DNA of 64,000 bases. It comes from Eledone cirrhosa. Lineage: Eukaryota. Positions 4,081 to 58,070 of the stretch are shown here, in pieces. The stretch covers positions 158,100,001-158,164,000 of the forward strand of contig OZ024742.1 of the NCBI GenBank assembly GCA_964016885.1, read 5' to 3'. The notes below the pieces were generated by a model. That model did no database searches, was not told where the DNA came from, and was given only the letters and a program-made list of their open reading frames with translations. Both the position numbers and the translations under genes were made by a program. The stretch's first letter is position 1, and every line of letters begins with the position of its first letter.

Positions 4081-4153
4081 GCTCAGTTGGTACAGAGTTT
4101 ATATTGATTTGTTATCGCATATACTCGTTGCCGAAATATTGTGTGGAAGATAT

Positions 4154-4447
4154 CTATCTATCTATCTAAGGCGGGTAAAATTCCCGAGATCCATGGACGA
4201 GTTCTCTCCAGCGGTCTCTGTCCCTCATTATCGCTGCCATGTCCTGCATCTCCAACAGACCAGTGTCTGTCCTTAGGGCATCAACATACATTAACCTTGG
4301 TCTTCCTCTTCTAGTGTGTCCATGTAGGGGCTCCCAAAGGAGTACTAAGTGCAATGTCAACTCTGGATGTCGGTGAGCATGTCCAGCTAACCTCAGTCTC
4401 CTCTGTGTCACTTTTGAGCTGACTTTTGGGATGCTCCCATACAGCTC
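4154..4447 (-). mobile_element. RTE-clade LINE 3' fragment
   Basis: Translates ELYGSIPKVSSKVTQRRLRLAGH..R..E....VLLWEP.HG..RRGRPR..YVD.L..DTG....M.DRDRWR, a typical RTE ORF C-terminus; (TAGA)n tail; flanked by 10-bp direct repeat TGGAAGATAT. Confidence 0.85.
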
Positions 4448-5769: not shown

Positions 5770-6240
5770 ATCTCGTAATGACGTCGTTGGCATTGATACT
5801 GAATTTGTTTCTTTCGGCGTTAATTTACATTCCAAACTCAACTCGAACGAGATATATTGAGTTATGGAAGAACACTGATCAAAGCATCCTAACTTGCGAC
5901 CCGTAAATGGCATCAGCATATCTTAGATTTGCGATGACCCTCCCCACTAAAATAACGAGTGTACTCGTAGGTCTCATCCACGATATTGCTCATGATCTCT
6001 CTAAAAAGTGGTCGAGCAACAGCATGGAGAGGAAGCAACACTTAGAGACGCTTGGTATTGAATGCATCTACGGTAAAGTCTGATACGAGTAGTGCTCCAG
6101 CTGAATGAGAGTAAGGTATTTTCATAGTATGTTCAAACTTTGACCAGCGATGAATGTCATTATGCCAGGTTTTATCAAAAGCATTTTAACATCTATGAAA
6201 ACATGGTATAAGTATTGATGGTGTTGATGTTAATTCTCCT
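5770..6240 (-). pseudogene. highly decayed non-LTR reverse transcriptase remnant
   Basis: Minus strand gives HVFIDVK/AFD (~6170-6206) and NANDV (YADD-like, ~5780-5798) at plausible RT spacing; many disruptions. Confidence 0.35.
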
Positions 6241-6959
6241 TACTGTTTCCACATCAACAGTTGTCTGGAGTTTTCTGAGGTCTCGGTATTTAGGATAACT
6301 CTGAACATTACTTTGCTAGCATAGAGTATCTTTCAGATGGTACGCTATTTCTGGCATATTTGACGATTTCCTTTTAAGCAGCAAGTTCTATGATGAGCGA
6401 CTGAATTCAAAGTAATTGACATTTGCCAGTCTGCCTTATATTGATGCAAAAGGTCACAACTATGTCTAGTTGCTACGTCAGTTCAGCAGGACTGTTGTAA
6501 AGGAGCACATACGGTTTATCTCTCGGTATTCTTATAGCACATTTACGTTTTCCGACTAATCGCTAGACATCATGGAAGGCTACTCTACATTCATCTCAGT
6601 GTCACCCCCTCTGATGTGGTGATTGTATAATACTGTGTCCATGCTCCAAATATTCTGTTAATTTCTGTCAGCATCTGCTTCCATTTCTTTCTTTACTAAT
6701 ATGAACCTTTGAATTTTTATCACTTGACATAGAACTCAGTTTCTATCCCCTTTAACAGTTTATTAATGGTAAATTTTAATGGAAATGTCTTGCGTCATTT
6801 TCATGAATATTGTACAAACAAATCTAATTTCCTGTTCTTCATAATAGTTTTCGTTAGTATGGTAAGGAAAAATTGGAAAATGAAGTGGTATATTGGTCTA
6901 GAAATCGGAAAACATTTCAAACTTCTGAATCGGGGCTTACTTGAAGCTAAATATTGCTT

Positions 6960-11126: not shown

Positions 11127-13264
11127 AAAATCAATCAGAATCAGCAAAACAAACAAGACAAACCATGAAGAAGTATATTAGATTAACACTTCATATAGTA
11201 GTAATTTGTGTACATTTGGAACACATGTCCTTCATAAGAAAATAGAATGAGAAATAAAAAGAAAGGTGGTTTACCAATGGATAGAACTGGTCATTCAATA
11301 TAGTTAACCGTGATATGTTACAAAGAAAAGCACTCAACGTTGCGCAACTGATCCATCTTTGGTTTTGAATCATGTTGGTGGTTCGAGGCGAGTGTCCGAC
11401 AAGCAAGCCCAACACTAGCTGTCCCATCATAGCAACCAATCTACAACGACATTTACAACGTCATTAACAATGACAGCAACTCCAACACACACAACAGCGA
11501 AGACAACTACTGTGACAAGGATAAGAAGCACTTTCACCACCTTAAACATGACGAAAACTAAAACGACCAAGACAGCAGCGCCAATACATAATTAGACACC
11601 GGCTCCACTGTGTATCTCGAATCTTCTCGATGGGATTGCTACAATTACAGCAGTTACCACAACTACTACTAGGACCACCACACCCACATCAACAATAATA
11701 ACAGCAACTACTATTACAATAACACCAGTAGCACCGACAATTACAACAACGACTATCACAACAATATCAGAAGTGTCGTCTACAAGAACAAGCACAATAA
11801 AAAGAAGAGGCTTCCTAGCCAAGAATTCATTGAAGTGGTAATGACTCTGCGTAAGCTAATGGGTGCGCCACTATCTGATTTAATGAAATTAGCTTTAGTC
11901 AGGCAGTAGTGTGTATGAGTTAAAAAATAGCGATGGGTTTCATTGTATCCTGCAATACTGATTTAAGTGCAGTGAAGAATATAATATATAAAATATAAGA
12001 TAAAAGGGTGTGTCGGATATTGCATAAAGAAACAATTCGTTACAGTAAAATAAAATATTTCAAAAATGCATTGAATTACAGTAGAATAAATGAACCCAAT
12101 AACACAAGATAAAATAAATAGAAACAAAATCAAACAATCAAATATAAATGGTCTAAGTTAAATTCAAAGGGGAAAAAAAGGAAACAAAATCAATGATAGA
12201 ACAATGACACAGACGGAGACAAATAGCTAAATGTAAAATGAGTCAGGTAGAGAAACATAGTTATAGTGCATAAACAGTGATTGTGTGACGAATGTCTGTG
12301 TATCCGTGTGTGTGTGCACATGTGTGTATGGATGGGTCCAAAGACATTTATTTCGTATATTTATATCCACACGCAATGTGTAGCCGGAACCCGTGTATAT
12401 GATCGTGGTGCTTGGAGTTGAAGGCGTTTTATTTGCAGCCTAACATAACGTCAAACTTCTAGTTGATGTCATTACAATTTTGTTTTATGATTTCCACGCA
12501 TTCTGTTAGCAGACATTTAAAGCCTCTGATTGTGCATACGGAGCGTGTTTAAGTAAGTTCTAGTTCATTTTGAAGTCTATATAGTTATTCTGAGCTGCAT
12601 TACCGTTCCTGCCAAACCAGTTTATGATCTTTTATTCCTGTGCTTAAAGGAATATACGTGGTTGTAATCCGGGGATTTGTAGGTCGTTTTATTCGCCCTA
12701 CTATAGCCGTAATCCCTATTTGGTATGGTGATCCCGCACTGGCATGGAATGCAATATGTTAGGCAATTGTTTTCCAGTAGGTACTCACTAGGGGATTTTC
12801 CAGTTGCAAGTCCTATCCCAAACATCAACAGGAGCCTTTGTTCTTCTGTCGTTTCTTGTTTGACGCTCTTTTCAGACATTGATGGCATGTGTGCTGTTTA
12901 CTTTCAAGTAATGACTTATATTTCTATTGTTGATAGACGGTATGTTGTTGAATCACCCCCCAACCTCCCCCTCCCCCCCCCCCCCACACACACACTCAAG
13001 GCACAGAAGGAAAAGTTCGCCGTGTGCCTGTTAAATGCTCCTTTTGAGAGAAGAAACGTTCTATGGTCTTGAAGATGATACTCGGAATGTTAGTCTGGAT
13101 GGTTTAGGAGTACTGTACGTTAAAAAAGTCCTCAAACTGGCCTACAAACAAAATATTTTTGCCGTCGGAAGAATACATCTTTTGCTGGAATTGCCTCGTT
13201 AAAGTAGTATCATTGAGTGATCGAGTTACTGCTACCAACAGTAATTAATAAACGTTACTACATA

Positions 13265-16850: not shown

Positions 16851-17618
16851 AATATTGCAGCGGCTGTTTGGTTTAAAATACATAATACCATTAAATGCTA
16901 TACGTTTGTCATAATTCCTACTAGATAAGGGCGCTTGATATTTTAATGTATAATTTCAACTCTTCTATTCCATTGCATTTATTCCAATCTCATTGTTAAT
17001 ATACTAGAGATAATCACATTAATTTCAACTCTACATAACACATTTTGTAGGGAAAATATTCAAATTTGTAAATTGTTATCCATGCAATCCATATTTAACG
17101 TTTTTATTGAAAACACAATCGAAAATCCGCCATCGAAAATGATTTTAATTTTTATTTTAAGTTGACATTTGAATGTAACTATTGTAATGTTTATATTTTT
17201 AATTATTTTACGATAAACGTATTATATCTTATAAAGGTGGAAATTTTCCCGTCATTGATCATACTTTGCTTCAATAAAATCCACATCCAAATTCCCAACT
17301 AGAGGTGCCAACACATAACCGATTAATCATAATTCATTTGAAAGCAATTTATTCTACAGAAACTGTGTATTAAAACATAGCTCAACCGCAATAAAACAAA
17401 TAATTAAATATTTTCCCTTGATTGACTGCCACAGACAAAATTATATGTGACAAAGCTAAACCACATTAATTTTACTATATGATGATACCTCAACCGAGTG
17501 GAATGATTGTATTACGATTGCTGGCATATACATATGTATATATATACATATATATACATATATATATATGTATATATACATATATATACATATATATATA
17601 TACATATATATACATATA

Positions 17619-17650
<32 letters not shown>

Positions 17651-17746
17651 GATAGATATAGATATAGATATAGATAGATATATGAAAGACGTAAAATAAG
17701 AAAAATAAAAAATAAAAAAATAAATAAATAACTTACTAAAGTTTTC

Positions 17747-17828
17747 ACTCCAACTAATTAGTTTCTGTAATGGGATAAAGATAGTTAAGTAATATAACCA
17801 TCGAGAATTCATTACGTCATCAGGAAGT
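17747..17828 (-). ncRNA. type I hammerhead ribozyme (array copy 1)
   Basis: ACUUC-CUGAUGA-c-GUAAUG..CAUUAC-a-GAAAC-UAAUUA-GUU-GGAGU: stems I, II, III and core all present. Confidence 0.8.
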
Positions 17829-18240
17829 CTATTCTCAGCTAAGTCTCCAGGCAATGCGCGGACACTAGGGAGTCATATAAAAATAATAATAATTCGGTGG
17901 AAGGAACAGCTAGCGGGGACTGGATTCCATGCACTGAAAAAGTTCGCTGCCTCTGGTCAAATGGCAGATTCTAAAGAATCAATCACGTGACACTGAAGCT
18001 AGTCGGAAGGAGTGGGTTGGTAAGATGACAGAAGCCTACTACCACACCAATGAATTAGTAGCGGATTTGGCAGGTTTGCGCAACAAATAAATAATTTGGA
18101 GATAAATACAGAGAATTAGTATATCTACCAACATATGCGTACAGATGTACACTAATGCTAGCAAATACATAAGTTATGTCATAGTACCTAGGTGGTTCAA
18201 TGCAGGGGGATGCAGAACAATAATATGAAAGACGTAAATT

Positions 18241-18271
<31 letters not shown>

Positions 18272-18297
18272 TTTTAAATTAACTTACTAAAATGTTC

Positions 18298-18379
18298 ACT
18301 CCAACTAATTAGTTTCTGTAATGGGATAAAGATAGTTACGTAATATAACCATCGAGAATTCATTACGTCATCAGGAAGT
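18298..18379 (-). ncRNA. type I hammerhead ribozyme (array copy 2)
   Basis: Same motif, 551 nt from copy 1. Confidence 0.8.
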
Positions 18380-18642
18380 CTATTCTCAGCTAAGTCTCCA
18401 GGCAATGCGCGGACACTAGGGACTCATATAGAAATAATAATAATTCGGTGGAAGGAACACCTAGCGGGGACTGAATTCCATGCATTGTGGATTTCAGTGG
18501 ATTTCAGTGGATTTCAGTGGATTTCAGTGGATTTCAGTGCATGGAATCCAGTCCCCGCTAGCTGTTCCTTCCACCGAATTATTATTATTTTTATATGAGT
18601 CCCTAGTGTCCGCGCATAGCCTGGAGACTTAGCTGAGAATAG

Positions 18643-18724
18643 ACTTCCTGATGACGTAATGAATTTTCGATGGTTATATTACGTAACTATCTTTATCCCA
18701 TTACAGAAACTAATTAGTTGGAGT
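18643..18724 (+). ncRNA. type I hammerhead ribozyme (array copy 3)
   Basis: CTGATGA 18648-18654, GAAAC 18706-18710, GTT 18717-18719, stem I ACTTC/GGAGT. Confidence 0.8.
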
Positions 18725-19186
18725 GAAAATTTTAGTAAGTAAGTTAATTTTTAATTTTTTTTTTAATTTTTCTTATTTTACGTCTTTCATGTTATTGTTC
18801 TGCATCCTCCTGCATTGAACCATCTAGTTACTATGACATAACTTATGTATTTGCTAGCATTAGTGTACCTCTGTACGCATATGTTGGTAGATATACTAAT
18901 TCTCTGTATTTATCTCCAAATTATTTATTTGTTGAGCAAACCTGCCAAATCCGCTACTAATTCATTGGTGTGGTAGTAGGCTTCTGTCATCTTATTAATC
19001 CACTCCTTCCGACTAGCCTCAGTGTCACGTGATTGATTCTTTAGAATCTGCCATTTGACCAGAGGCAGCGAACTTTTTCAGTGCATGGAATCCAGTCCCC
19101 GCTAGCTGTTCCTTCCACCGAATTATTATTATTTTTATATGAGTCCCTAGTGTCCGCACATTGCCTGGAGACTTAGCTGAGAATAG

Positions 19187-19268
19187 ACTTCCTGATGACG
19201 TAATGAATTCTCGATGGTTATATTACGTAACTATCTTTATCCCATTACAGAAACTAATTAGTTGGAGT
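19187..19268 (+). ncRNA. type I hammerhead ribozyme (array copy 4)
   Basis: CTGATGA 19192-19198, GAAAC 19250-19254, GTT 19261-19263; 544 nt from copy 3. Confidence 0.8.
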
Positions 19269-19516
19269 GAAAATTTTAGTAAGTTAATTTTAAATTTTTT
19301 TTTTTTTTTTTTATTTTTCTTATTTTACGTCTTTCATATTCTTCTTCTGCATCCTCCTGCATTGAACCACCTAGGTACTATGACATAACTTACGTATTTC
19401 CTAGCATTAGTGTACATCTGTACGCATATGTTGGTAGATATACTAATTCTCTGTATATAGATATATATAGATATATATATACATATTACATATATATTAT
19501 ACATAAATATAGACAT

Positions 19517-19795
19517 AAAAGTGACACAGAGGAGACTGGGGTTAGCTGGACATGCTCACCGACATCCAGAGTTGACATTGCACGCAGTGCTCCTTTGGGA
19601 TCCCCTACATGAACACACTAGAAGAGGAAGACCAAGGTTAACGTATGTTGATGCGCTAAGGACAGACACTGGTCTGTTGGAGACGCAGGACATGGCAGCG
19701 ATAATGAGGGACAGAGACCGCTGGAGAGAACTCGTCCATGATCTCGGGAATTTTACCCGCCTTAGATAGATAGATATCTTCCACACAATATTTCG
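19517..19795 (+). mobile_element. RTE LINE 3' fragment (sibling of 4154-4447)
   Basis: ORF 19521-19769 nearly identical to 4166-4411. Confidence 0.85.
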
Positions 19796-20527: not shown

Positions 20528-21630
20528 ATACATATAATTAAATAAACGTAAATAAATATACACATATAAATATGTATATAACGAGCGCACACACATACCT
20601 ACATGTAAATACACATATGTTCGCAGACCTCCGTCAACCAAAACACAAAGTACACATATACACACACCCTACATACGTACGTACGAACCGAATACTTACC
20701 TATACACATAACCTAATGCACATGTACCAGTATATATAAAATATACGCCATAATATATACAAGCAAATATACGTACGAGAAAGTATACGTAGCTTCACAA
20801 AACATACAGGTAATATATACTTACCTATACAAATAAGTAATGGTATAAACATAACATATACTTAGCTACCACATCAAGACGTAAAATATCCGCGTATAGT
20901 TCGTACTATCCGTTAGGGTATAATGTGGGGCTGTAATACAGGAACGTTTTGTGCAATTTATGTTTACAAGCCGAAATTGCCTCAGATTTTTTGTTTAAGA
21001 TGTGGTCTTTGGCGTAGAGTATTTCCAGGGCATCAGCGGCGCAGTGGTCACATGGTCTCTTATTTCCGTTATACGATCTAGCCTCAGCTAAGATCTCCCA
21101 GTGTAATTTATATTGGGTGTGGTTGTCTGTTAGACTCCAGATATGAGCTGAAAGGGACGTCATATTCCTTCTTAAAGGGTTAAGAAAAGAATGGGTATGC
21201 ACGTAAAGACGCTGTTTGAATCTATTGGCGGTTAACCCTATGTAGGCCCTACGGAACGTGGGTGTTTCAACCTTACATTTGTAGACAATGTTACTAGAGA
21301 GGCATTTTCCAGATAGGGGTAGTCAACCCGATTCCTTCAATTACAGTTAGTACTAGCTACAGGGTTGAACGTGTTCCTACGGCTAGGTAATTTAGCTACA
21401 TTTGAATCTGTGATGTTATGTGCAAGGTTAGGTGTAGAGTAAGAAATGTTAATGGTATTTCTATTAAAAATTGTACTATATGTATGTGCTGGGGGGAAAT
21501 GCTTCATAATAAGGGAGAGAAAGTTCTGAGCAAATGGTGTGGCCATCTCCACATTTTATGGTGGGTTATACCATATAGTGCGTCGAGCCCGCTTTGGATT
21601 TTACTCTTCAAATGTATTAGTATTACTATA
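19936..21630 (-). mobile_element. 5'-truncated Penelope-like element (GIY-YIG region and 3' region)
   Basis: Minus strand: KHFP..H.Y..IFNRNTI.ISYST, NCN..PLSGKCLSSNIVYKCKV..YIGLTANRFKQR..H..SF, CDHC; ends in (TA)n; 21580-21630 is a terminal piece shared with 35245-35292 and 50570-50615. Confidence 0.85.
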
Positions 21631-21819: not shown

Positions 21820-22006
21820 GGTGGATTGGTAGTATCGGTAAGGGTCAGGCGCCATGCTTTGAAGCATAGAGTTACCTCCCTTTATTATCTGAGTTCAGAT
21901 CCCGCCGAGGTTAACTTTGCCTTTCATCCTTACGGGGTCGATAAAATAAAGTGCCAGTAATGCACTTGGATAATTGCTGGCCTTGTGCCAAAACTAGAAA
22001 CAATTA
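21820..22006 (+). mobile_element. tRNA-derived SINE inserted in (TA)n
   Basis: Full family match with A/B boxes. Confidence 0.9.
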
Positions 22007-22010
22007 TTAC

Positions 22011-26583: not shown

Positions 26584-26763
26584 GTGGATTGGCAGTATCG
26601 GTAGAGGGTCGGACGCCATGCTGTCCACCATAGTTACGTCCCTTTACAATCTGAGTTCAAATCTCGCCGAGGTTGACTTTGCATTTCATACCTACGGGGT
26701 CGATAAAATAAAGTACCAGTAATGCACTGGGTAAGGGCTGGCCTTGTGCCTAAAGTAGAAACA
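26584..26763 (+). mobile_element. tRNA-derived SINE
   Basis: Full family match; TSD ATTATATATT (26574-26583 / 26764-26773). Confidence 0.92.
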
Positions 26764-26907
26764 ATTATATATTAATATATGTAGTAATAAACACAGTTAC
26801 GGTGTCTAAAATTACCAGGGTTCAAATACCACGTCGGTTTGAGAAATTTAGCCAGAAGCAAACGGAAAATACAGAAAATATCAGACCGTCTCAATAACTC
26901 TTACATC

Positions 26908-27793: not shown

Positions 27794-30660
27794 CTATAGG
27801 ACATCTTTGTAGACGATATTGCGTGTCATCCCTTGATAAGTGTAAGCAAAAAGTCATATCCTGCTCCCTACGCGGGAACAGGCAACATAAAGTTGGCCAT
27901 GGGAGAAGCATGGCTCCCCCAAATGGATGACCGCCACCGACAACGTTTGCCCTTGTGACTTGTTAATGGACATGGCAAAACATGGTCTCACCGGGAATTG
28001 GGATCGCCGGAAATCGAACTGGATATCTGACGCCGAGGGGAAAAGGTACATCCTGGGAATGAAAACATTATCCCCTCTCCCGCACCCCGTTACAATGGTG
28101 GCCTCAATCAAGTGTGGCGTCAGTGACTTGACGACCATGCAAGTACCGTTGCACTGCTTTGGTGGACGTAAGTTCCTTATTAGCATAATGGGACAGTCAA
28201 CCCTAAGCTTAATAATGTGAAGTGGGAGCCCTGGGGGCTCAATGGAATTTAATAACTCAACCGGATAATTAACGATATCGTCGGGGTCTGACGTCCGGTC
28301 GATAGATTTGAAGATGTGTTCTTTACCGGGGTTCTTCTCAATCAGCTGCTCGTTAATAAAATTAACCATGGTATTTTTCGGAGCAAGGATGGCTCTTTCG
28401 CTCAGCCAATCGAGGTTTTTAAAGTTAGATGAGACATTAGGAAAAACTGCTTCCCACAGGTCAGAAGGTATGCTCACAATGTTGTACAGGGGGTCGATGC
28501 TATGCCGCCCTTGTCATCCGCAGGGACCTTGCCCTCACCAAGTGCTAAAATATTCTGAGCAATTGCTGCAGACATGTTTTCACCATGCAAATGAGCACGT
28601 ATATTGCTCAGGTACAAACTCCTCACCTAGAGTCACAACTTGGACGATTAAGGCAGGCACGCACTTCATCAGCTCTTGTCCCTTTGGGGATGACAGGCAG
28701 CGTTTGCCGAAAATCCTCTGATAGCAGAAGCGTTACGCCACCCATAGGAGCCGTAGAATCCCTAATGTCTTTCCGGGTCCTGTCCAATGCCTCAAGGGCA
28801 CCCTTGTGTGCCATTGTGCTCTCATCCCAAACAATGATGCAACATTTTTTGAGAACCAGAGTTTCGTGTGAACCCTTGCTGATATTGCATGTTGGTGGCT
28901 CAGTTTTTACTAAATCCAAGGGGAGTTTAAAGTTTGAGTGTGCTGTCCTGCCTCCCCGCAGCAAAGTAGCAGCGATCCCGGACGATGCAACAGCCAACGC
29001 AATTTTTTCTCCTGACGAATCTTAGCGAGAGTCAATTTCGTTACATAAGTTTTTCCGGTACCCCCAGGAGCATCGAGAAATTAAATACCCCCAGTCTGAT
29101 TTTGAACTGCGTCAATGATAGTTAAATAGGCCAACCTTTGGTCCCGACAGAAGTTTGGGCTCATTTTCCTCTAAGTACTGTGAAAGAGATTCGATGTCAT
29201 GCTGTTTCCCGCAACAAATCCGGGGCCAACCTGTTAGCTTCCTTTCTGACGGTTGATGGCAAGTCATACGTCGCCAACTCACTCTCACCCATGTCGAGGA
29301 GGGCGTCTTCGATAACAATGAGTGCCCACTGAAATATACTGCAGATGAGCCAGGCGCAGGAAGTCCTCAGACATGAAGTCTCTGTACTTGACGCATATTG
29401 ATTTGGTATCACCCAATTCACACTTTTGAAGCAAAATGACAAAGAGTTCCCGTAGACCTTTAGGTGATTTCAACAAATCATCCTCTGCTAAAATGGAATC
29501 CCATTGCTAATCATCTTTCAAAAGACCACGCTTAAAGTAGGCTTCCCAGTACGTATCACATATTTCTCCATCAACAGTTTTGAGGTTCTGAAAACTTTGG
29601 GGCCTACAACTTCATGCAGAAGAAGCCGGAGATGAAAGCACTCATGCTGACTTGGGGGCACAGTGTAAACCCTTCCAAGACAGCTGTCATATTTTATACC
29701 AGGATGTCTTTCAGCAGCCTGACATGACTTTCTTCCCACCCACGTGTTTTTTTACCATATAAGGTAGGATGGAACCTTGGAGTACACAATTGTTTTCGCA
29801 AATGTATCGAACTGGCAAATTTTGAAGAAACCCGTCAGAGTGGTCTCTTGCGGATCGGCGGCCAACTTGGCGGCGGTTTGGTCCGTAAAGTAAACCCTTT
29901 GTCTATTTTCTAAATGTACCGCAAGCTGTACGATGTCGGGGTAACGTTGGTGTAGGGGTAAACCAAATAGGCGCCAAAAAGCTTCATTGCTACAGATGTA
30001 CCGCCCCACCAGGTATTCTGTGACCTTGTCCCTGCTATTTTCAGCTTGAAATGCGAACATTGCCGCATCAGAGCCCTTATTTACATATTTGCAGATGTAT
30101 TTTATCGACTTGACGGAGTTGCAAAAGTAACGTTGATGTGGGCGTTTGAACATCATCAAGAGAACCGGGTAGTAAGGGACCACCCATCTATTGTCGACTT
30201 GACCTTCCCTTACTGTTGTGATGAAGCCACCGTTCTCGGGCCGTCTCCGCCTGTACAGGAGGTACCCGTCGACACCAATCTGAGTCTGGTCAACAAATTC
30301 TTTTGGGTATCCCTTACTGTACGAAGCACCTTTTCAGACACGTGTGATGCTCATTAGGATCCGACGCACACGGACCATGTTAGCTTTGACGATGTCATGT
30401 AATTCCTGGTCAATTACTGGATTAGGGATTTCAGCCGAAATGAAGCTGTCCATGGCATTTGAATTGATTTTATGAGCTAACCAAATCAAAATGTGAGCAT
30501 GTGGCAGACCTCGTTTTTGCCATTAGACGGTGAACATGTCATATTTCACAGCCCCAAATACCTGACCTTTTTGATTAACGCCATGAGTTTAGCCAGTTTC
30601 AGTCTGAACACTCTGGCAATGAGGTCATGTCTGTTCGAATAATTTTGCCCAGGAAAAGGT
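27794..30660 (-). pseudogene. Helitron RepHel (HUH endonuclease + Pif1-like SF1 helicase), frameshifted
   Basis: Rep motif WQKRGLPHAHILIW (30481-30522), YSKGYPK and DGYLLYRRR; SIKYICKYVNKGSD; Walker A FLDAPGGTGKT (~29050-29080); VASSGIAA..GGRTAHS.FK, WDESTM, DFRQTLPV, FAMSINKSQGQT, HGQLYVACSRV; ends NIVYKDVL*. Confidence 0.93.
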
Positions 30661-33648: not shown

Positions 33649-33833
33649 TGTGGATTGGCAGTATCGGTAGAGGGTCGGACGCCATGCTTTCCAGCATAGT
33701 TACGTCCCTTTACGATCTGAGTTCAAATCCCGCCGAGGTTGACTTTGCCTTTCATCCTTACGGGGTCGATAAAATAAAGTACCAGTGATGCACTGGGTAA
33801 TTGCTGGCCTTGTGCCTAAAGTAGAAACAATTA
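33649..33833 (+). mobile_element. tRNA-derived SINE (consensus-like, young)
   Basis: Full family match; short TSD ATTATTT. Confidence 0.92.
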
Positions 33834-33969
33834 TTTACGTATAGGGCATTCGAAGTTTGCTTGTGTTTGTTCTACATATATGTATGTATGTGTAAGGTAA
33901 GAGTATGTATAATTAGATTAGTTATCGAAGGTGAATACACTTGTTGGAGTAATAACGGCCTTGTTCAAG

Positions 33970-37741: not shown

Positions 37742-37813
37742 TAAAATAAAGTTAAATAAAAAGTCAAATGTTTCAAATTTGAAACATTTGACTTTTTATT
37801 TAACTTTATTTTA
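37742..37813. repeat. perfect 72-bp palindrome
   Basis: TAAAATAAAG...GTTTCAAA|TTTGAAAC...CTTTATTTTA, no spacer. Confidence 0.95.
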
Positions 37814-37869
37814 TATATATATATATCGAAATGAAAATGCGAAGGCAAGGTAAAATTCCATTCATATAA

Positions 37870-37943
37870 TCAGGACACATGTTTCAATAAGAGATAAATC
37901 GATTGTGAAGCCAAGATCGATTATCACCGATCTCATCAGGTGA
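37870..37943 (-). ncRNA. hammerhead ribozyme in PLE 3' terminal repeat
   Basis: UCAC-CUGAUGA-47-nt stem II (GAUAAUCGAU/AUCGAUuUAUC)-GAAAC-AUGU-GUC-CUGA; one stem I mismatch. Confidence 0.7.
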
Positions 37944-39275
37944 AAATGAATTGTCTTCATATTCTTGATATGAGGGAGAAAAAATAACGATGTTCTCTCG
38001 CAGAATTCATTCCCTCATATGGAGACACACCAGTCAGTCAGAGACATGGCGACTGCTATTAGCTTTAGTTGAGGTCATAAAGGTTTTCAGATTTCTATCG
38101 CTGCAAAAGATGCTGGACCTCAATCAAATCTGTAGGGATACAGTCAGTCACAGTTAAACGTGAGTGGGTACACACACACTCCACACCTTCACACATCGAC
38201 TCGAGGTCAAAGAAAAATATATACATATATATACACACATCAACACAGTATTAAACCCGTAGAATTAGCGTGGGTACACACACACTTTCACACACGCCGA
38301 AGCGATGTCCGAGAAAAAACAAATATAAGAATGTACCAACACAGCACTCACCGAAAGTTAGTTCACAAAGCAACAGATGCTATGTCGGTCAAATCTCAAT
38401 TTGACGATGTAAATTGGAAATATTGGGTTAACCAACGCTACACACATACACACACACAAACGCGTGCGCGCAAGTAAGTTCAGTTCAGTGTTCTGCTATA
38501 CGTGTATAGATCGAATTGTAACATCCATATCTTCAAGTGTGTGTTATGGTATATACATATCCGAATCATCCAAAAAATGGGGGGGGGGAGGTATGTCCGG
38601 GTATATACACATCCATGTGAAGAGCAAGCAATTAGCTCATGTCAACCTCCTTGTGCTGTCCTGTTGAGAATCCGTGTCACACAAATCCGTGCGTGCAACG
38701 TGGGCCGACAAAGGGCTCCGTGTAGGGTTGGGTATTGGGTAAATGCGTCCGCAAGTGCGATTTCCCGTCACATGGGCCAATGAACTTTTAAGATAGTTGT
38801 TTGAATGGTGGAGGTGTGTTATCCAACACACAAGGTGAAGTAAGAAAACACAGGACAGTAAAATCTAAAGGATGTGTGTAGGCCCATTAATGGTGTGTCA
38901 GTAATATTGTTCAATCTGTAACAGTGAGTCCTCCATGGTTAGATGATCACGCATCAAAACCTGGTGTAGTGTTCAGTCGGTAGGAACGTGACAGTCGTAA
39001 ATGTGGGAGCTCAATTTCTAAAGGAAACGGGTACTGTGTGTAGAGCTATGTATAGAGAGCGTAATCGGTCTTAACTAAGTGTGTAATCAATCTAACTATT
39101 TACTAGCTAGGTATTCTAAAAGAGAGTACTCAGCTGTGAGAACTCCGTGGACACAGGCCGAGTATCGTTTGCAAGTGCGCAAACAATCTTAGTCGTCTAA
39201 CTACCTTAGTGTGTGACTGTCCGTTTATTGAGAGAACTATATGGCTAAAGTAGAGAAGGAGGAGTTATTGGTAGG

Positions 39276-41350
39276 TTACCTTCCAAAAATCCTGCGGAAG
39301 GTTTTCGAGGTTCTATGTTGACAGTTGCTGAAAAAATCTGCTCTTCTATTAATTAATAGGGGGCCGCCTCTAATAATATTAAAAGTTTCAGCTATACATA
39401 AATTGCAGACGCCAGTGCTGCCGTTATAAGGTTGGGCTGACCAAACTATGAACCAGGATAAGGAGTGCTCTATATTCTGATGTTTAAGCTTCCAGACTAA
39501 TTCCGAAAGTGCTATGCTATTTTTTTTATCTAATCTATTAAAGGTATGGCGGTGATTATACCATCTATCCTTAAATTCCGTGGCAGTTGCCCCAACATAC
39601 CTAAAGGTTCTATCAGGAGTGGAGACCTTACAGTCGTAGACTATGTTTTTGGTAAGGCATTTCCCAGCCATGGGGCAGGTGGCGGTGCTACTGCAGTTAT
39701 ATTTTTTGCTATCGATGTGGGTAGTTCCGGATGGACCACGGTACCTTTGGGTCGGGTCTCAGTTCCAGTCTGCTCTATGGGTAAATTCCCTGGGGTTGGG
39801 AAGACCCGACTCGCTTCACGTGTATGAGTCAGTTCCTCAATAGAGCTGCCATTGTTCCTGCCATCCTAATTCCCTCATTGCCTGTCCTAAGTCAACTATA
39901 ATTCATCTTAGCTATATTTTGAGCTATGTTACTAGTTGTGGAGTAGGACAGCTTGATGGTATTTCTATTGAATATTTCATAAAATCTGTGCGATCTAGGG
40001 AAGCATTTGTCTAAGGCCCTAAAGAAAAGCTTAACTATACTAGTGGTCAGGCCAGTGGAGTAACGGGGATTATACCACAGGACTTTTCTGGTCCGATGCC
40101 TCCTGTTTCTACTAACTATATTAGAATTACCTGTCTCCCTAGTAGTTACTGATCTATTGTAACTGGAAATTACCTGTGGATCGATGGTGTCCTGGGGTGT
40201 CACGATTGTGTTCGGAATCGTCCCAAGTGTTTCAGGGCGGTGTACCCTCCGTGCGGGTATTGGGGTTACCCTCGATAGCTGGGGTTGTATCCGCTATGCG
40301 TCTGCTACATCTGTCCCTATTCCCCCTACTCAACCCTCGTTCCATACTGCGTTCAACGGTAGTTTTATCGGTTCCACAATTAAGGTTACCATTAGAGCTT
40401 CCGCTGGCGTTACGTTGCTCAGACCCAGTGTTAGTACCTGGGTGGCTGTTTCTATTAGTACCAACAGCACTGGGACTAGACGGCAGTACAACATGAAGAC
40501 TATATGAATCCCCCCTCGTATCCCGCCTACTGTTAACTAGAGTTTCACTATTTAGGCCTAAGCTATCGCGGGCAATGTTACTTCTACTATTTAATGGACG
40601 TTTGAATGAGATCCCTCGCTATGCCCTGCGCGTTCCAGGGCGCTATTATAGTAATTCTTGGATGATAGTCCTGAAATTCTACTAGAGACGCTTTTGGTAA
40701 TACCGTTAGTGACTATTCTAGGGTGATTCGATTTGGCGTTGAGATAGTTTAGATTCTCGTTGGGTTTGTAGTAAGGTTGGAAGCGTCCTGAATTGAGGTT
40801 AAGTGTAACATCTAGAAAATTAACTATTTTTAAATTCCCTTCCAAAAACTATACTTAGGTCTATGCTCTTGAAGAATTTGCTAACTTTTTTCCTCACCCT
40901 CTCTACCATACTATTATTATGGAACGACACAGTAAACAAGACGTCGTCACGGTAAGCGCCGCCTCCCAGGTGGGGCATTTCCGCTCCGAGACAGTCAAGG
41001 AGGTAAAGGCCCACCAGATCCGTCACCTGGGCCGAGTCCGTGGATCCCATGGTGATGTTGAAATTGTCTGGCCAATCCCTCCTAGTCCACAGGTCACCGT
41101 TGAATTCAATTAAGGTTTTTCTAGCTAGGAGAATAATGCTAATTCCTTCGGATGTAAGGTCGGTGTGTAAGCTAGCAAAGTTAAGGGGGCCTACCTAGAA
41201 GAGTTGGAGAGATTGAAGAGTAGTAATTAGAGATATCGAACTGTATAAACTTAGTGCTATTCTTATTCTGCGATTTCTCAGACCAGTTAATTACCTCACT
41301 AGTTCCTGACGACAACTTGAGTTTCGATCTCCTAACTCGATTGGAGATTA
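39276..41350 (-). pseudogene. PLE reverse transcriptase + C-terminal GIY-YIG endonuclease, disrupted
   Basis: FIQFDISNYY, FNITMGSTDSAQVTDLVG, YRDD, VNFLDVTLNL, SNHP, IFNRNTIKLSYST, CP.AGKCLTKNIVY..YVGAT..FKDRWYNH, CNLCIAE. Confidence 0.93.
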
Positions 41351-41464
41351 TTTTATCATATTGATCTGGTTCAGATGAAGATAAGTAATTTAGGTAATAT
41401 TATGGAGCGGCTCTTCAGAACTTCTCCACGACACCTAACATAGCTAGCCATATCGCATTCATTT

Positions 41465-41538
41465 TCACCTGATGAGACCAGTGATAATCGATCATGGCTT
41501 CACAATCGATCTATCTCTTATTGAAACATGTGTCGTGA
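41465..41538 (+). ncRNA. hammerhead ribozyme in inverted 5' repeat
   Basis: TCAC-CTGATGA(41469-41475)...GAAAC(41523-41527)-ATGT-GTC-GTGA; perfect 4-bp stem I. Confidence 0.78.
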
Positions 41539-41579
41539 TTAAATGATTGGAATTTTACCTTGCCTTCGGATTTTCATTT

Positions 41580-41740
<161 letters not shown>

Positions 41741-41961
41741 CGGGGTAACAAATTATTGTTATAGGTAGTCTACTTAAGTGTAGTCCAGTTATGGTACTCC
41801 GGGTAGTGGATGATATCAACGCTTGGCTAAGTTTGACTCAACAAGGCGTTTCCATAGTGATGCTGCGAATGCGCTGTAATTCCTATGTTGTAAACCTTTG
41901 GAATAATGATAAATCAGGAAAGAAGAGTGACACGGTTTGCTATACAAAAAAGGTTTTTAAT

Positions 41962-42080
41962 CTCATTGCTGACAATTGTTTCTCTGAACTGGTAGGTCTA
42001 GAGATCGCTACCCGCTTATTTTCACTTTATTCGATCACCAATACAAAGTCATAACCAGTCAATTCATCGGAGCTTGTGAG
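41962..42080 (-). ncRNA. hammerhead motif, U4C core (inverted repeat copy)
   Basis: CUCAcaaGCU-CCGAUGA-..UGACUGGU..ACCAGUUCA..-GAAAC-AAUU-GUC-AGCaaUGAG. Confidence 0.6.
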
Positions 42081-42441
42081 AATGAAAAGAATATACAGGC
42101 ATGGCTACTATATATAGTAGTAATGGCATTCACTCAGAACAATAACAACAATACTAACAATGCTAGCAATAAATTATTTGAAATAATCACAACATCAATC
42201 TAGGTGGGAAGTATAGTATATCTACGATTTTAGCGTGTAAAACTAGCTGACATGAGGCAGATGTATAAAATTGACATGTAAAAGCTGTCGTGGGGTGTAT
42301 TATATCTAGTGTAAAGATAAGCCGGTGTCTTTAACCGATGTAGGTCTGGCGGCGGTAAGAATCGTTTATTATCTGACAGATGAATAATTTATCACTGTAG
42401 TGAGATTTGTGTTTGCCTATATTAGATGAAAGGGTTGTCTA

Positions 42442-44647
42442 AATCCTGCAAAACCCCCCAAACAACCCCACACTCGATGCCTTCGAGCTGGACCTTATGA
42501 ATATGATAAGTGGAACTAAATTCAAAAAAGGAACACATCACAACAAATTACAAAATGACATCAATACACTGCTAAAAAATCTAAAAGTCACTAACGGTAT
42601 CATAGTAAAAGCAGACAAAACATCAAACGTATACTCTATGGACCTTAACACATACAATAATTTTATCCAGCGTGAACCACATAACAAATACAAAAAAAAA
42701 CAAATGAATCCACAGTCACCAGCATTAACGTGGAGGGCCTTAGCATAGTAAATAAACTCGGAATACCTGATAAGACCGAGCCTATAACCCCATGCAACCC
42801 CACATTTAAGCTGAAGGATCACAAAAATAATTTTGGAACAAACCCTACTATTAGATTAATATGCCTATCTATGTCAGATATAGGTAAAATTAGCAAGAAC
42901 ATTCTAGATAGGGTAATCGCACAAATAAAGGGTAAACTAGAAATCAATTTATGGGGTAACATTAACGAGGCGATTGAATGGTTCAATAAAATACGAAATA
43001 GGGAGACATGTAACTTCATACAATTTGATATAAACGACTACTATGCATCCATATCCCCAGCCAACCTAGATAAAGCGCTTATATTTGCCCAAAATAACTC
43101 CGATCTTACCCTTGAGGAAATTGAAATAATAATAGCGGCTAGAAGGACTATCATAAAATTAGAAAATAGCTACTGGGTAAGAAGAGATAGGATAAACAGC
43201 TTCGATATCACAATGGGATCAAATCACTGACATCGTGGGGCTATTCATAGCACACAACCTACATAAGGAATTCAGTAACCTCCAAGGAGGGATTTATAGA
43301 GACGACACGCTCCTTATAGCTAAGAACTTAAACAACCAGAGCATGGAAAGATTAAGAAAAAAGATTAGAACATTCTTCAAAAAACTAGGCCTAAGTATTA
43401 CCTACGAACTGAACCATAAGAAGGTAAACTTTCTAGATGTGACTCTAAATCTAAATACAAAATTAATAGAACATTTCCGCAAAAATAATGAAAATCTGGC
43501 CTACATTAGTTATAATTCAAACCACCCCAAATCCATAATAAGATCCATAGCACGTAGTATATCCCTTAGAATATCCCGCTTATCCTCAAAGCTAGAAATT
43601 GTTAATGAACATGCTAACTATTGTAAAGCAGCATTACATAGGGCTGGATATAAAGATAAACTGCAGTATATAGCGAATAAAGACAACTTAAACAAACCTA
43701 ATAGCAATTACACCAACCGCTCACACAAAAATAGAGGTAACAGGACTAGACATAGGGTTAGGCACGTAGCACCTAGAATAAGCGGTCCAAACACCAATAA
43801 TGTAAACCCAAGAAATAATAGAAGAATCAGAGAAAGAAAATACCTATGGTTGAACCCAATCTTCAACTCCTCTGTAAAAACCAGACTGCCTTCTACATTC
43901 TTTAAACTAATAGATAAACACTTCCATATTTCACACAGATATCATAAAATACTCAATAGAAACACTATAAAACACTCATACTCTACGGCAGCAAATATAG
44001 AATCGCACATACGCAAGATCAACCACAGAAATATCTCTAGGCAATCCGCCCCACCTATGCGCAACATAGCACCAAATTATAAGCACAAACACATCACAGT
44101 ATCACAACCGCAAGCGCATACAAGCACGCAACAGCAAAACTCCAACGGACATGAATCACAACCCACTTATAGCAGTGCACAAAACAGCAGTGTAGAAGCT
44201 GCACGAAATAACACCTCAAACTGTAACTGTCACCTACCGGATAAGTACCCATTGGCGAATAGATGCCTTGATTCGAGCCTAGTGTACATGTGTACGGTCA
44301 ACCCTGACAACTCCACTTGGCATTACATTGGATCCACCGCGGTAACTTTTAAAAAAAGATGGTATGTGCACAGACACTCGATGAAAAATCGTGCACTTAT
44401 GGGTTCTACAACCTTCGCCAAAAAAATCTGGGAACTTAAGAACAACAACACCAACTACAGTATCAACTGGTCGAGGTTGTCGGCCGCAAAGACCTACAGT
44501 ACCGGTATGTCCCACTGTAGGCTATGTGATCTAGAATTAGTGTATATCCTTAGAAATGTAAAAAGGCTACTTAACAACAAGTTAGAAAGATCTATCTTCT
44601 GCAGACACAGGATCGCCTCTAAATTCACAAGATTTAAACCTCCGTGA
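42442..44647 (+). pseudogene. PLE RT + GIY-YIG ORF, 5'-truncated with 2 frameshifts
   Basis: VKADKT, FKLKDHK..IRLI, FIQFDINDYY, ITMGS/QITDIVG (small deletion), IYRDD, VNFLDV, SNHP, NCNC..PLANRCL..LVY..YIGST..FKKRWYVH, CRLCDLE; last 470 codons open. Confidence 0.95.
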
Positions 44648-44804
44648 ATCGAACCTACGTAACCCAGCTTTCAACTTAGGATACTCACTATACTGCACCA
44701 ACCACCTCAGAAATATAATCATTAAGTACATTCTAGCCTTCTTAGTTCTATACCACCCCAATGTCTGTAAGTACCTCATCAACCCATAAGCATATCTCTT
44801 CTCA

Positions 44805-45142
44805 GCTGCTGTCAGCACTTGAACCTAAATCCAAGAACATTTCAAAATACTACTACAACAGAACTTTACCTTCCTCCTGTTATAATTATAGTCAGCAAGT
44901 TTTCTCTTTATATGTATGTATATATGTGTATATATATATATATGTTTATGTGCGTGTATGTATGTATATATTGCTGTCAGCACTTGAACCTAAATCCAAG
45001 AACATTTCAAAATACTACTACAACAGAACTTTACCTTCCCCCTGTTATAATTATAGTCAGCATGTTTTCTCTTTATATGTATGTATATATGTGTATGTAT
45101 ATATATATATATGTTTGTGTGCATGTATGTATATATATATAT
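44805..45142 (+). repeat. ~165-bp tandem duplication in the PLE 3' region
   Basis: TGCTGTCAGCACTTGAACCTAAATCCAAG... at ~44807 and ~44972. Confidence 0.9.
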
Positions 45143-45591
45143 TGCCTCCTTAACCTCTGTATTAACTTGCCCATTATATTACTACTCTGTTAATGTTGTC
45201 TTATACATGTATGTTATTGATGATGAGAAAGCTAGACAACCGTTTCATCTAATATATACCACACAAATCTCACTACAGTGATAAATTCTTCATCTGTCAG
45301 ATAATAAATGATTCTTACGGCCACCAGACTTACATTGTTTAAGACACCGGCTTATCTTTACACTAGATATAATACACCCAATGACAGCTTTTGCATGTCA
45401 ATTTTATACATCTGCCTCATGTCAGCTAGTTTAACACGCTAAAATCGTAGATATACTATACTTCCCACCTAGATTGATGTTGTGATTATTTCAAATAGTT
45501 TATTGCTAGCATTGTTAGTATTGTTGTTATTGTTCTGAGTAAATGCCATTACTACTATATATAGTAGCCATGCCTGTATATTCTTTTCATT

Positions 45592-45710
45592 CTCACAAGC
45601 TCCGATGAATTGACTGGTTATAACTTTGTATTGGTGATCGAATAACGTGAAAATAAGCAGGTAGCGATCTCTAGACCTACCAGTTCAGAGAAACAATTGT
45701 CAACAATGAG
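45592..45710 (+). ncRNA. hammerhead motif, U4C core, 81-nt stem II
   Basis: CCGATGA 45602-45608, GAAAC 45690-45694, AATT loop, GTC 45699-45701. Confidence 0.6.
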
Positions 45711-45756
45711 ATTAAAACCCTTTTTGTATAGCAAACCATGTCATTCTTCTTTCCTG

Positions 45757-45869
<113 letters not shown>

Positions 45870-47918: not shown

Positions 47919-49130
47919 TTCTCCACGGCACCTAACCTAGCTGGCCACATCGCATTCAGTAACCATCATAAACTAAGAGAATATGACTCCCACAAGGCGG
48001 TACCACGACCCCTCTCAAATAAACGACGCCACTACACCAATACTTACTCCAGTAGCATACCTCCCCCTCTCTAATCCTATTAGCACACACCAGCCTCATA
48101 GTTTAAACAACCCTACCCTTACTAACTGCAACAGTAATTAAAACTGCCGTTACCTTAATGCATGCCCACTTGACGGACAATGCCTTACACCCAATATAGT
48201 ATATAGGTGCACAGTTAAAACAGCATCGCATATCAGCTCCTATATTGGCTCTACCTCTAACCCTTTTTAAGGTACGCTATAACGCGCACTCATTTTCCTT
48301 CCGCGACACTAGCAATAGATGTTCAACATCTCTAGCAAGACTCATTAAAAACCTTAAATTAACCAATATTGAACACTCACTAACATGGGATAATCTTGGC
48401 GAGATCCCCAGCGTTCAATGGATGAAGAAACTGTTGTGATCTCTGTCTTACCGAGGCCTATTACATAACTTTGTCACGACCACAACCTATTAATGATATA
48501 AATGAGGTAACTATTTACTGTCAACATCGAAAGGCAAATTCCTTCCCAAACAGAATTTCCGACCCAACATAGTCTTCTAATCTCGCTATTACATATAGCT
48601 AACATGTTAAATATTTAACCCAGACTTGGATAATTATAAGTTACCTCCCCTTACACTGTCTCTCACTTAAGCTCATTAGCACTTCTTAGCTATAAATCAC
48701 CTATGATTTTAACTTCTCAAGGAGTTACCTCCCTTGAAACCCGTCTCTAATTATTAAGGTAACTCTCCTTCGGTGGCCATTTTGTTAAGCATATGCAGAT
48801 CTCGCTTAAGACAGCCTCGACAGAAGCGTAAGGCTTGCTTATAGCAGGCAATAGATAGATCCAGGATCCCTTTCGTGAAATACCAATATATGGAACATTA
48901 CATTCATGTAATCATCTTTCTTTACTTTACTTTATATTCCTTATTCCATCTTATCTCATTTTCATTATCATTATCTCATTTGAAGTTCTGAAGAGCCGCT
49001 CCATAATATTACCTAAGTTACTTATCTTCATCTGCACCAGATCAATAATGATCTATAATCAATTGATCCAGAAACATTATATGGAGTAGCGAATCAATTG
49101 TAAACGGACATTATTAGTATTATTCCTTAA

Positions 49131-49312
49131 GGTTGGTGTATTGGTAGTATCGTAAGAGGGTTGGACGCCATGCTTTAACGCATAGAGTTACGGCCTTTGC
49201 CATTCTGCGTTCAAATCCCGCCGAGGTTAACTTTGCCTTTCATCCTTACGGAGTCGATAAAATAATGTACCAGTGGGGTAATTACTGGCCTTGTGTCAAA
49301 AGTAGAAACAAT
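49131..49312 (+). mobile_element. SINE inserted in the PLE 3' terminal repeat
   Basis: Family match; 12-bp TSD TATTATTCCTTA (49118-49129 / 49313-49324); absent from the inverted copy. Confidence 0.92.
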
Positions 49313-49611
49313 TATTATTCCTTACATTAAACTATAATTACACTCCTTATTCCTCCCATTAAACTGAAACTATATTGACACACTTTAAATAACGTTTTCC
49401 TTTTGAATGTTGTGATCTTGTTTTGCTTAACTAATGAATATTTCCAGCTCTGTGCACTTAATCTCTGCATGAACCCAGCGCTCTAGCAGCCTTCCACTGC
49501 ATATTGCACATTGAGCACATGCCTCTACGCTTTTGGCTTCTAACAGCTTCACCAATCTCTCTTCTCCTTACCTATCTCCATCTTTCTCTTTAAGATTTGT
49601 TTACTCTAGAA

Positions 49612-57400: not shown

Positions 57401-58070
57401 GTATTATTTATCTCAGTATTGGGTGGTGGATTGGCAGTATCGGTAGAGGGTCGGACACCATGCTTTGACGCATAGAGTTACGGCCCTTGCCATTCTGAGT
57501 TCAAATCCCGCCGAGGCTAACTTTGCCCTTTCATCCTTACGGGGTCGATAAAATAAAGTACCAGTAATGTACTGGGTAATTGCTGGCCTTGTGCCAAAAG
57601 TAGAAACAATTATTTATCTCAGTATTCAGATCATTGTCTGCTTCGGGTGGCTCCTCCGTTCTCAGGACCTCTTCACCTTCATTTCCCACTGGCTCGCTTG
57701 TCTGGCATACTACACCCGCCATCTCCAAGCCATTCTCTCTGCTCAGTTCCTCCAGTTCCAGCTCGCTTATCCACCCACTAGTTCTTATTACCCGAGCCTG
57801 CCCGGCCAATTTTTGTTCATCTAATTTAAATAGACCAATCTTGTTCCAGATGTTATGCATCCGTCTCCTGTAGCCCCTCTCCTTGGGGTTACTTTTCAGG
57901 TAACATTGCATAACAGTTCTATTCAATTCTTTCGTCCAGATGGTTCTGGCCCCTTTCCTTCTTCTTCTTCCTCCAACATCAGCAGTATTTGGTTGACAGT
58001 CAGGTTCCTGCTGCTGAGCCAGGGGGCACCTGTTGGGTGAGAGTCTGTCACATGATGTTCTAGTCTCCAT
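54472..58070 (-). pseudogene. R4/Dong ORF interrupted by a SINE and one TAG
   Basis: [49 protein letters not shown]; [33 protein letters not shown]. ORFs 57537-58070, 56368-57372 and 54472-56337 join in frame once the SINE is removed and the TAG read through. Confidence 0.93.
57421..57609 (+). mobile_element. SINE inserted antisense into the R4/Dong ORF
   Basis: 17-bp TSD TTATTTATCTCAGTATT (57404-57420 / 57610-57626). Confidence 0.95.

Follow-up and report, generated by a model that had tools for sequence, protein, structure and literature searches.

The described systems closest to the locus reported here are the non-LTR retrozymes of metazoans and the hammerhead-bearing terminal repeats (pseudo-LTRs) of Penelope-like elements (PLEs). 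Retrozyme families are reported to span 51-972 bp (Li, Clavereau and Pollet 2026, 10.64898/2026.07.22.740005), an older size range being 150-450 bp (Cervera and de la Peña 2020, PMC7229834). PLEs were named as candidate movers of animal retrozymes in the 2020 paper (PMC7229834), and in the available text of the 2026 preprint their role is argued from co-occurrence and sequence relation, with the mechanism left open (10.64898/2026.07.22.740005). In the axolotl retrozyme HHR_Amex2 helix II begins with a U·U mismatch; this retrozyme cleaves, and does so better as a dimer (PMC7229834). In one study a single one of nine retrozyme dimers was cleaved (10.64898/2026.07.22.740005), and the hammerhead motifs of PLEs are described as having low activity (PMC4209133).

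On the PLE side, a paper of 2014 had already pointed out pairs of motifs that lie on opposite strands at a distance of 100-700 bp (Cervera and de la Peña, PMC4209133). Junction palindromes of PLE insertions have been read as self-priming (Arkhipova et al. 2013, PMC3846280; Craig et al. 2021, PMC8557442), and MRC1 consists of non-autonomous head-to-tail PLE derivatives (among PMC3846280, PMC8557442 and PMC11167929). A PLE protein studied in vitro nicks both strands, extends them and begins copying at two internal sites of the RNA (Frangieh et al. 2024, PMC11167929); uncut RNA is the main template in this reaction and, for one PLE, the ribozyme is dispensable for insertion in vitro (PMC11167929). 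A narrow open-access search by title or abstract start, without supplements, found no paper on head-to-head retrozyme arrays.

The locus occupies positions 17680-19456 of a 64-kb window (the whole stretch of DNA that was analysed), which is AT-rich, animal-type DNA rich in microsatellites and transposon remnants. It consists of a protein-free repeat of about 545 nt arranged in two head-to-head arms of 1.7 and 1.5 units, about 3.2 units in total, the right arm exceeding the left by 117 nt (Table 1). Each arm holds two hammerhead motifs one period apart, one cut-to-cut monomer and fewer than two full units, with the predicted cuts spaced 544 nt apart on the plus arm and 551 nt on the minus arm. 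The 10-mer GTGGATTTCA that is repeated at the junction of the arms is composed of words from the neighbouring unit sequence and lies beside a CATG/TGCA quasi-palindrome. Both outer ends have three to four letters in common with the (TA)n target, and any target-site duplication is illegible within these flanks; non-LTR retrozymes have neither PBS nor PPT, and a target-site duplication, in those that have one, exceeds 4 bp. The longest ATG-started ORF of the right arm measures 61 aa, and tblastn with seven PLE protein pieces of the window returned no PLE protein remnant in the array (best E 0.37); a candidate remnant of a PLE endonuclease C-terminus near 19050-19100 was rejected (E 8.6 and 38).

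Much of the original prediction is reproduced by these results. A pattern search recovers the four hammerheads with their predicted cuts at the positions given for them, and the outward-pointing arms with their motif spacing, the lack of a meaningful ORF and the (TA)n tracts bounding the element at 17680 and 19456 all hold. The locus had been described as a fold-back array of a ~545-bp unit: the two opposed arms are there, but they amount to only ~3.2 units, and the 5.3-fold junction 10-mer had been overlooked. The remark that the unit is unusually long fails against the 51-972 bp of reported families, though it would agree with the older range.

Two further observations concern the array and its border. 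The word GTAAGT occurs at 18735-18740 and 19279-19284, just past the predicted cut site and followed by a T-rich tract, and we take it to be splice-donor-like; introns are possible in PLE terminal repeats. Directly to the right of the array (19517-19795) lies one copy of a 284-nt repeat, of which a second (95%) is found in opposite orientation at 4132-4415; it resembles the 3' end of another retroelement and is unrelated to the array unit.

Table 1. Coordinates of the array, its hammerhead motifs and other repeats, as positions of the window.
Feature	Positions	Strand	Remarks
Left (TA)n-type target tract	17526-17683	no strand	ATAT 17680-17683 common to tract and element end
Left arm	17680-18487	-	808 nt = 1.47 units, outward from centre; end 72 nt beyond second predicted cut
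Hammerhead L2	17747-17828	-	C3 17823; predicted cut after 17752 (N17)
Hammerhead L1	18298-18379	-	C3 18374; predicted cut after 18303 (N17)
Predicted cut-to-cut monomer, left arm	17752-18302	-	551 nt
Head-to-head junction	18487-18539	no strand	GTGGATTTCA x5.3, copies 100% identical
Right arm	18532-19456	+	925 nt = 1.7 units; end 193 nt beyond second predicted cut
Hammerhead R1	18643-18724	+	C3 18648; predicted cut after 18719 (N17)
Hammerhead R2	19187-19268	+	C3 19192; predicted cut after 19263 (N17)
Predicted cut-to-cut monomer, right arm	18720-19263	+	544 nt, 36% GC, no ORF
Right (TA)n-type target tract	19454-19511	no strand	TAT 19454-19456 common to tract and element end
Inverted repeat	41909-42441/45233-45762		around PLE 42443-44647
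Inverted repeat	37812-37951/41457-41596		hammerhead motif in each copy, TA-repeat ends
Inverted repeat	47663-47921/48982-49430		around PLE remnant
~190-nt repeat copies	721-908, 1623-1803, 21820-22008, 26584-26772, 33650-33837, 49131-49316, 57426-57616		

All four cores read CUGAUGA...GAAAC-UAAUUA-GUU-GGAGU, in the type I order of CUGANGA, GAAA and an NUH site closed by stem I. Stem I (ACUUC/GGAGU; 19187-19191/19264-19268 in R2) has five pairs, one of them a U·G. Stem II of R2 is in two parts, IIa with six pairs (19200-19205/19243-19248) and IIb with nine (19213-19221/19227-19235), with a 7x7 internal loop between them, and a C·A mismatch (19199/19249) separates the core from the G19200-C19248 pair that opens the stem. 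The palindrome of R2, ACUAAUUAGU (19253-19262), is 10 nt long and its own reverse complement. The array hammerhead has the features of the PLE type in the form of a 5-bp helix I, a 6+9 bp helix II, an extra C19199 after A9 and a palindromic helix III (feature list from PMC4209133). A loose type I pattern found eight matches in the window against a mean of 0.24 per block-shuffled window (100 shuffles), and a stricter one, with stem I of at least 5 pairs and a palindromic stem III loop, a mean of 0.0 in shuffled windows. Exact pattern scans gave no matches in metagenome contigs and none in viral contigs.

The Rfam hammerhead models, with which the motifs were originally to be checked, gave no match at gathering score across the 64 kb, and among the 36 rows obtained at E up to 10 none belongs to a hammerhead family; the array motif is a hammerhead form that Rfam misses. 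The description of the four hammerheads as intact is right for the core letters of all four copies but not for the stems, where the C·A mismatch opens a long two-part stem II and stem I carries a U·G in place of the C-G of most family copies. Cleavage at GUU is slower than at GUC. The C·A mismatch together with the GUU site may make for poor cleavage; GUU is among the listed cleavable NUH sites (PMC3138052). Further type I motifs, of other families, lie at -24762, -25652 and -47566. That at -24762 has a 10-nt palindrome and a long stem II whose base is a U·U, a design as in the array hammerheads. In that at -47566 the stem II base is also a U·U, stem I measures 9 bp and stem III is longer.

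One unit (18860-19403, of which the 123 nt of 19281-19403 were left out of the read comparison) was compared with four of the 22 listed sequencing runs. In the best run, X1, which contains only 0.40 of the words and may come from another species or lack the array locus, 1,271 contigs match the unit, 235 of them at 99% or more, 412 at 95-99%, 446 at 90-95% and 178 below 90%; the share extending into unlike sequence is 0. Another 5,893 reads were found in X20, 33 contigs in X5 and 35 in X4, which is from a second organism; neither these totals nor the read depth of the unit is a copy number. No matched piece spans the whole unit in the compared runs.

Many copies make up the family of this unit, and conservation is strongest at the ribozyme core. 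The two halves of the core have the highest summed depth (196-255 thousand and 548-590 thousand), and the interior of stem II falls to 38 thousand. None of the best-supported 40 of 158 variant rows falls in the region 19191-19280 (6.6e-5 if rows were even), diverged forms of stem II appearing as loose ends instead, and no indel at 19249 is among the 12 of 13 indel rows listed. C occupies position 19190 in 75-91% of the depth across the four runs, which turns the U·G of stem I into a C-G and makes the stem fully Watson-Crick, whereas all four array copies keep the U·G, the minority form in the family. Among the 24 of 229 loose-end rows considered, most are unit variants, (TA)n or low-agreement AT-rich letters. 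Loose ends past the core in X1 and X20 retain CUGAUGA-C, and two rows of X5 enter (TA)n behind 18905 and 18913, the stop point of the right arm of the array. One loose end of X4 has a UUCG loop ahead of GAAAA, which, compared by eye across different, unaligned runs, suggests another subfamily with a different yet paired distal stem II.

Differences among the array copies are informative about how they arose. Over the 200 columns common to the four copies all 11 variable sites are private (five in L1, three in L2, two in R1 and one in R2), and the 132 columns common to three copies hold 4, 4 and 1 private differences. Divergence is about 1.4% per copy, R1 and L1 differing at 22 of 544 columns, and a pattern of R1+L1 versus R2+L2 is absent. 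In a check of 25 variant rows, drawn from the best 40 of 158, the copies of the array have in common alleles carried by the minority in both X1 and X20, for example at 19113, 19190, 19148 and 19116 in four of four copies and at 18906 in three of three. Since the differences are exclusively private, the four copies were likely identical at birth. Members of the family are mostly 1-10% apart, so that mirrored differences would be expected from the transcript of an ordinary mixed tandem but from neither a circle nor a very uniform tandem.

Predicted folding points to the dimer as the form in which the ribozymes would act. For a monomer the active fold is predicted at -13.2 kcal/mol and the minimum, in which the core is paired with a palindrome strand, at -15.7 kcal/mol, giving the active fold a predicted probability of 0.003. 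A double hammerhead is predicted at -38.4 against -31.4 kcal/mol for two monomers, the unconstrained two-molecule minimum (-41.8 kcal/mol) has the palindromes paired and stems I incompletely paired, and in the lowest-energy fold of the right arm alone the palindrome of R1 pairs with that of R2. The modelling thereby supports the expectation, also part of the original prediction, that the 10-nt palindrome favours a dimeric hammerhead. The 96-nt ribozyme regions do not fold more stably than their shuffled versions (z -1.0 to -1.3); monomer circles fold below shuffles (z -3.8 and -4.8; 40 shuffles each), and 15 of 68 other stretches of the window are equally low.

The outlook for RNA output from the locus itself is different. 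A read-through transcript, computed on the plus strand with the minus strand taken by symmetry, is predicted to fold at -1389 kcal/mol, with 82/82 and 81/82 bases of its ribozymes paired with the antisense arm. Such an RNA is predicted to bury both ribozymes in a ~800-bp hairpin and to pair with itself rather than release a circle. The release of a ~545-nt monomer from a read-through transcript, which had been proposed, is unsupported, because the antisense arm would be transcribed first and would pair both plus-strand ribozymes; by prediction, only a transcript beginning in the 110 nt ahead of R1 would leave this route open. The back-junction 19263->18720, put forward as a test for circles, is identical in sequence to genomic 18719/18720, so only RNase R or private variants, such as the R2-type A19158 and C19210, can reveal a circle. 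None of the RNA runs contains more than 0.06 of the words.

Inverted repeats also border three PLE RT/endonuclease remnants in the window (Table 1). The element at 41741-45762 has frameshifted RT and GIY-YIG-like reading frames at 42443-44647 and 533-nt inverted terminal repeats (95%) with (TA)n at both ends, the inverted copy being longer by 168 nt, and carries a 165-nt tandem at 44807-45140, in its 3' region; a pattern search found no canonical hammerhead in it. Its protein at 43196-44644 has Atlas feature matches of 0.92-0.97, some of whose members carry HTH_animal, GIY-YIG and RVT_1, and on the basis of these matches and of sequence motifs we take it to be a PLE protein. Pfam, run on eight proteins of the window, left the PLE pieces unnamed and returned only RVT_1 (54475-56367) and one weak unrelated match. 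A minus-strand PLE remnant at 37812-41596 has a 140-nt inverted repeat (94%) with motifs at C3 -37939 and +41469, a GUC site and a long stem II, and the copies of this repeat stop ~50 nt past the cut site in TA repeats. Further GIY-YIG-like PLE fragments were found by tblastn at 20906-21591, 48124-48545 and 12589-12777. The window also contains minus-strand reading frames at 27854-30333, which presumably resemble a Helitron replicase/helicase, and a dispersed repeat of ~190 nt, a SINE-like size, in at least seven copies (81-97%).

The unit (18790-18898) and the terminal repeat of the PLE at 42443-44647 (45447-45537) have three exact words of 11-13 nt in common, on the same strand and in reversed order. 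Three such words occur in four of 462 tiles, all four of them that terminal repeat, and the words are possibly shared cis-acting boxes. No colinear match of the unit to the PLEs of the window was found (nhmmer best other match E 4.4), and local alignment of the unit with a window PLE scored 33, a value reached by 50 of 186 control tiles. A tile at 6096-6625 with two common words was rejected, as it gave no alignment. The view that this is a non-coding, tandem type I retrozyme-like repeat mobilised by a PLE agrees with the many copies, the PLE-type motif and the anatomy, but no autonomous partner for the unit was found among the PLEs of the 64-kb window.

We consider it probable that the array is a non-autonomous Penelope-type retrozyme copy, inserted into (TA)n in one event by PLE reverse transcriptase, via more than one round of circular or uniform multimeric RNA and then fold-back on its own cDNA. 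The observed part of this explanation comprises the anatomy, the four motifs, the family and the private-only differences, and the features that speak for it are the PLE-like head-to-head inversion, the junction palindrome, the unequal ends and the AT-rich target. Weighing against it are that no partner PLE was found in the window, that Rfam gave no hammerhead match, that no RNA run exceeds 0.06 of the words, and that cleavage may be poor. Tandem copies elsewhere in the genome would be transcribed, and two ribozymes would pair via the palindrome ACUAAUUAGU; their cleavage after GUU would probably be slow or depend on the help of a protein. A PLE protein would nick (TA)n and prime within the RNA, at a place that includes AT (the 19456 end). 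The cDNA would then extend over 925 nt and across two cut sites, so that its template would be either a circle or an uncut uniform multimer, and between the two we see the balance as about even. At the quasi-palindrome the enzyme would slip, producing the 10-mer repeat, and then turn to copy 808 nt of its own cDNA; in a variant of this step, a second cDNA primed on the other strand would be joined at the junction. The behaviour of the PLE protein in vitro (both strands, internal starts, uncut RNA; PMC11167929) allows this two-cDNA version and weakens the need for a circle. Once in place, the locus would be a poor source of monomers on account of its ~800-bp hairpin and would more likely feed RNA silencing. 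A more specific version, in which the array is the fossil of one reaction, with PLE reverse transcriptase passing 1.7 times round a circular retrozyme RNA, repeating 10 nt five-fold in a telomerase-like manner and folding back, is one we offer tentatively and rather doubt. If true, it would be direct genomic evidence for retrozyme circles as the insertion template and PLE enzymes as the machinery, in a family whose hammerheads have a long stem II that is mismatched at its base.

Other explanations share parts of this evidence. An autonomous PLE with an internal 545-nt tandem could be the source of the unit, as its 3' region or pseudo-LTR, the locus then being a 5'-truncated, folded-back insertion of that PLE; the PLE pattern of the ribozyme, the 165-nt tandem in the 3' region of the PLE at 42443-44647 and the words common to the unit and the terminal repeat of that element would all suit such an origin. 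It is nevertheless unlikely, as the 545-nt period contains neither an ORF nor an ORF remnant, the X1 contigs do not run into unlike sequence, the loose ends considered (24 of 229) lead mostly into unit variants, (TA)n or AT-rich letters, and the common words are reversed in order rather than colinear. Somewhat less probable still is the insertion of a single short copy followed by local tandem and then inverted duplication of DNA, with no multimeric or circular RNA template. Events in the DNA itself are able to produce both inverted and tandem duplications. Local amplification of PLE ends is proposed in the preprint (10.64898/2026.07.22.740005). Such a history should have left variants shared by R1 and L1 or by R2 and L2, which are seen at none of the 11 variable sites; both outer ends lie at AT microhomology in (TA)n, where other copies stop at the same place, and neighbouring PLEs have the same anatomy.

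It is just as improbable as local duplication that 544/551-nt monomers and circles are actively produced by the array locus. Either arm contributes two motifs, the palindromes of an isolated right arm are predicted to pair, and a transcript starting at 18532-18643 would escape the antisense arm; against this stand the predicted burial of nearly every ribozyme base in the opposite arm, the lack of a known promoter in those 110 nt, the weaker U·G of stem I in all four copies and the small fraction of words reached by the RNA runs. An assembly or library artefact, which would be in keeping with the assembly trouble caused by inverted PLE structures (among PMC3846280, PMC8557442 and PMC11167929), is very improbable given that the arms differ from each other (R1 versus L1), every copy has private changes, and the arms stop at different places, each with its own target junction.

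The mobility of animal retrozymes has so far been inferred, and the array adds a probable retrozyme copy with the fold-back signature of PLEs and, by inference, units that were identical at birth. It also suggests a cheap genomic test, namely that units should be identical within each new insertion and loci should differ. By itself the locus leaves current models unchanged.

Compared with endonuclease-containing PLE insertions, the array has the same truncated inverted 5' copy in head-to-head arrangement, junction palindrome, one longer end, AT-rich or microsatellite target and, presumably, internal start of reverse transcription; unlike these insertions, as far as the available text of the sources describes them, it has no ORF, its ends differ by 117 nt as against 30-40 bp, and a 10-mer is repeated five-fold at the junction (PMC3846280; PMC8557442; PMC11167929). 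Its ribozymes resemble the PLE pseudo-LTR hammerheads (min-HHR and variants) in that helix I is short, helix II long and helix III palindromic, with a G10.1-C11.1 pair and one additional base separating A9 from G10.1, and depart from the forms set out in the accessible part of that source by an extra A between C11.1 and G12, a 10-nt palindrome and a 545-nt repeat without an ORF (PMC4209133). A mismatch at the base of helix II also occurs in the axolotl retrozyme HHR_Amex2 (PMC7229834). With the metazoan non-LTR retrozymes the array has in common head-to-tail non-coding units with one type I hammerhead each, GC below 50%, many copies and the presence of PLEs in the genome (PMC7229834; 10.64898/2026.07.22.740005). 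At 545 nt the unit lies within the 51-972 bp of the 2026 survey (10.64898/2026.07.22.740005), and is longer than the 150-450 bp of the retrozymes in the 2020 paper (PMC7229834). It differs from the metazoan retrozymes, as portrayed in the available portions of both papers, in its partial tandems placed head to head, its long two-part stem II and its GUU site (PMC7229834; 10.64898/2026.07.22.740005). At the level of sequence it qualifies as a non-LTR retrozyme under the definition of the 2026 preprint, where the class is also defined by expression and cleavage (10.64898/2026.07.22.740005), and the array is likely a new member of this known class.
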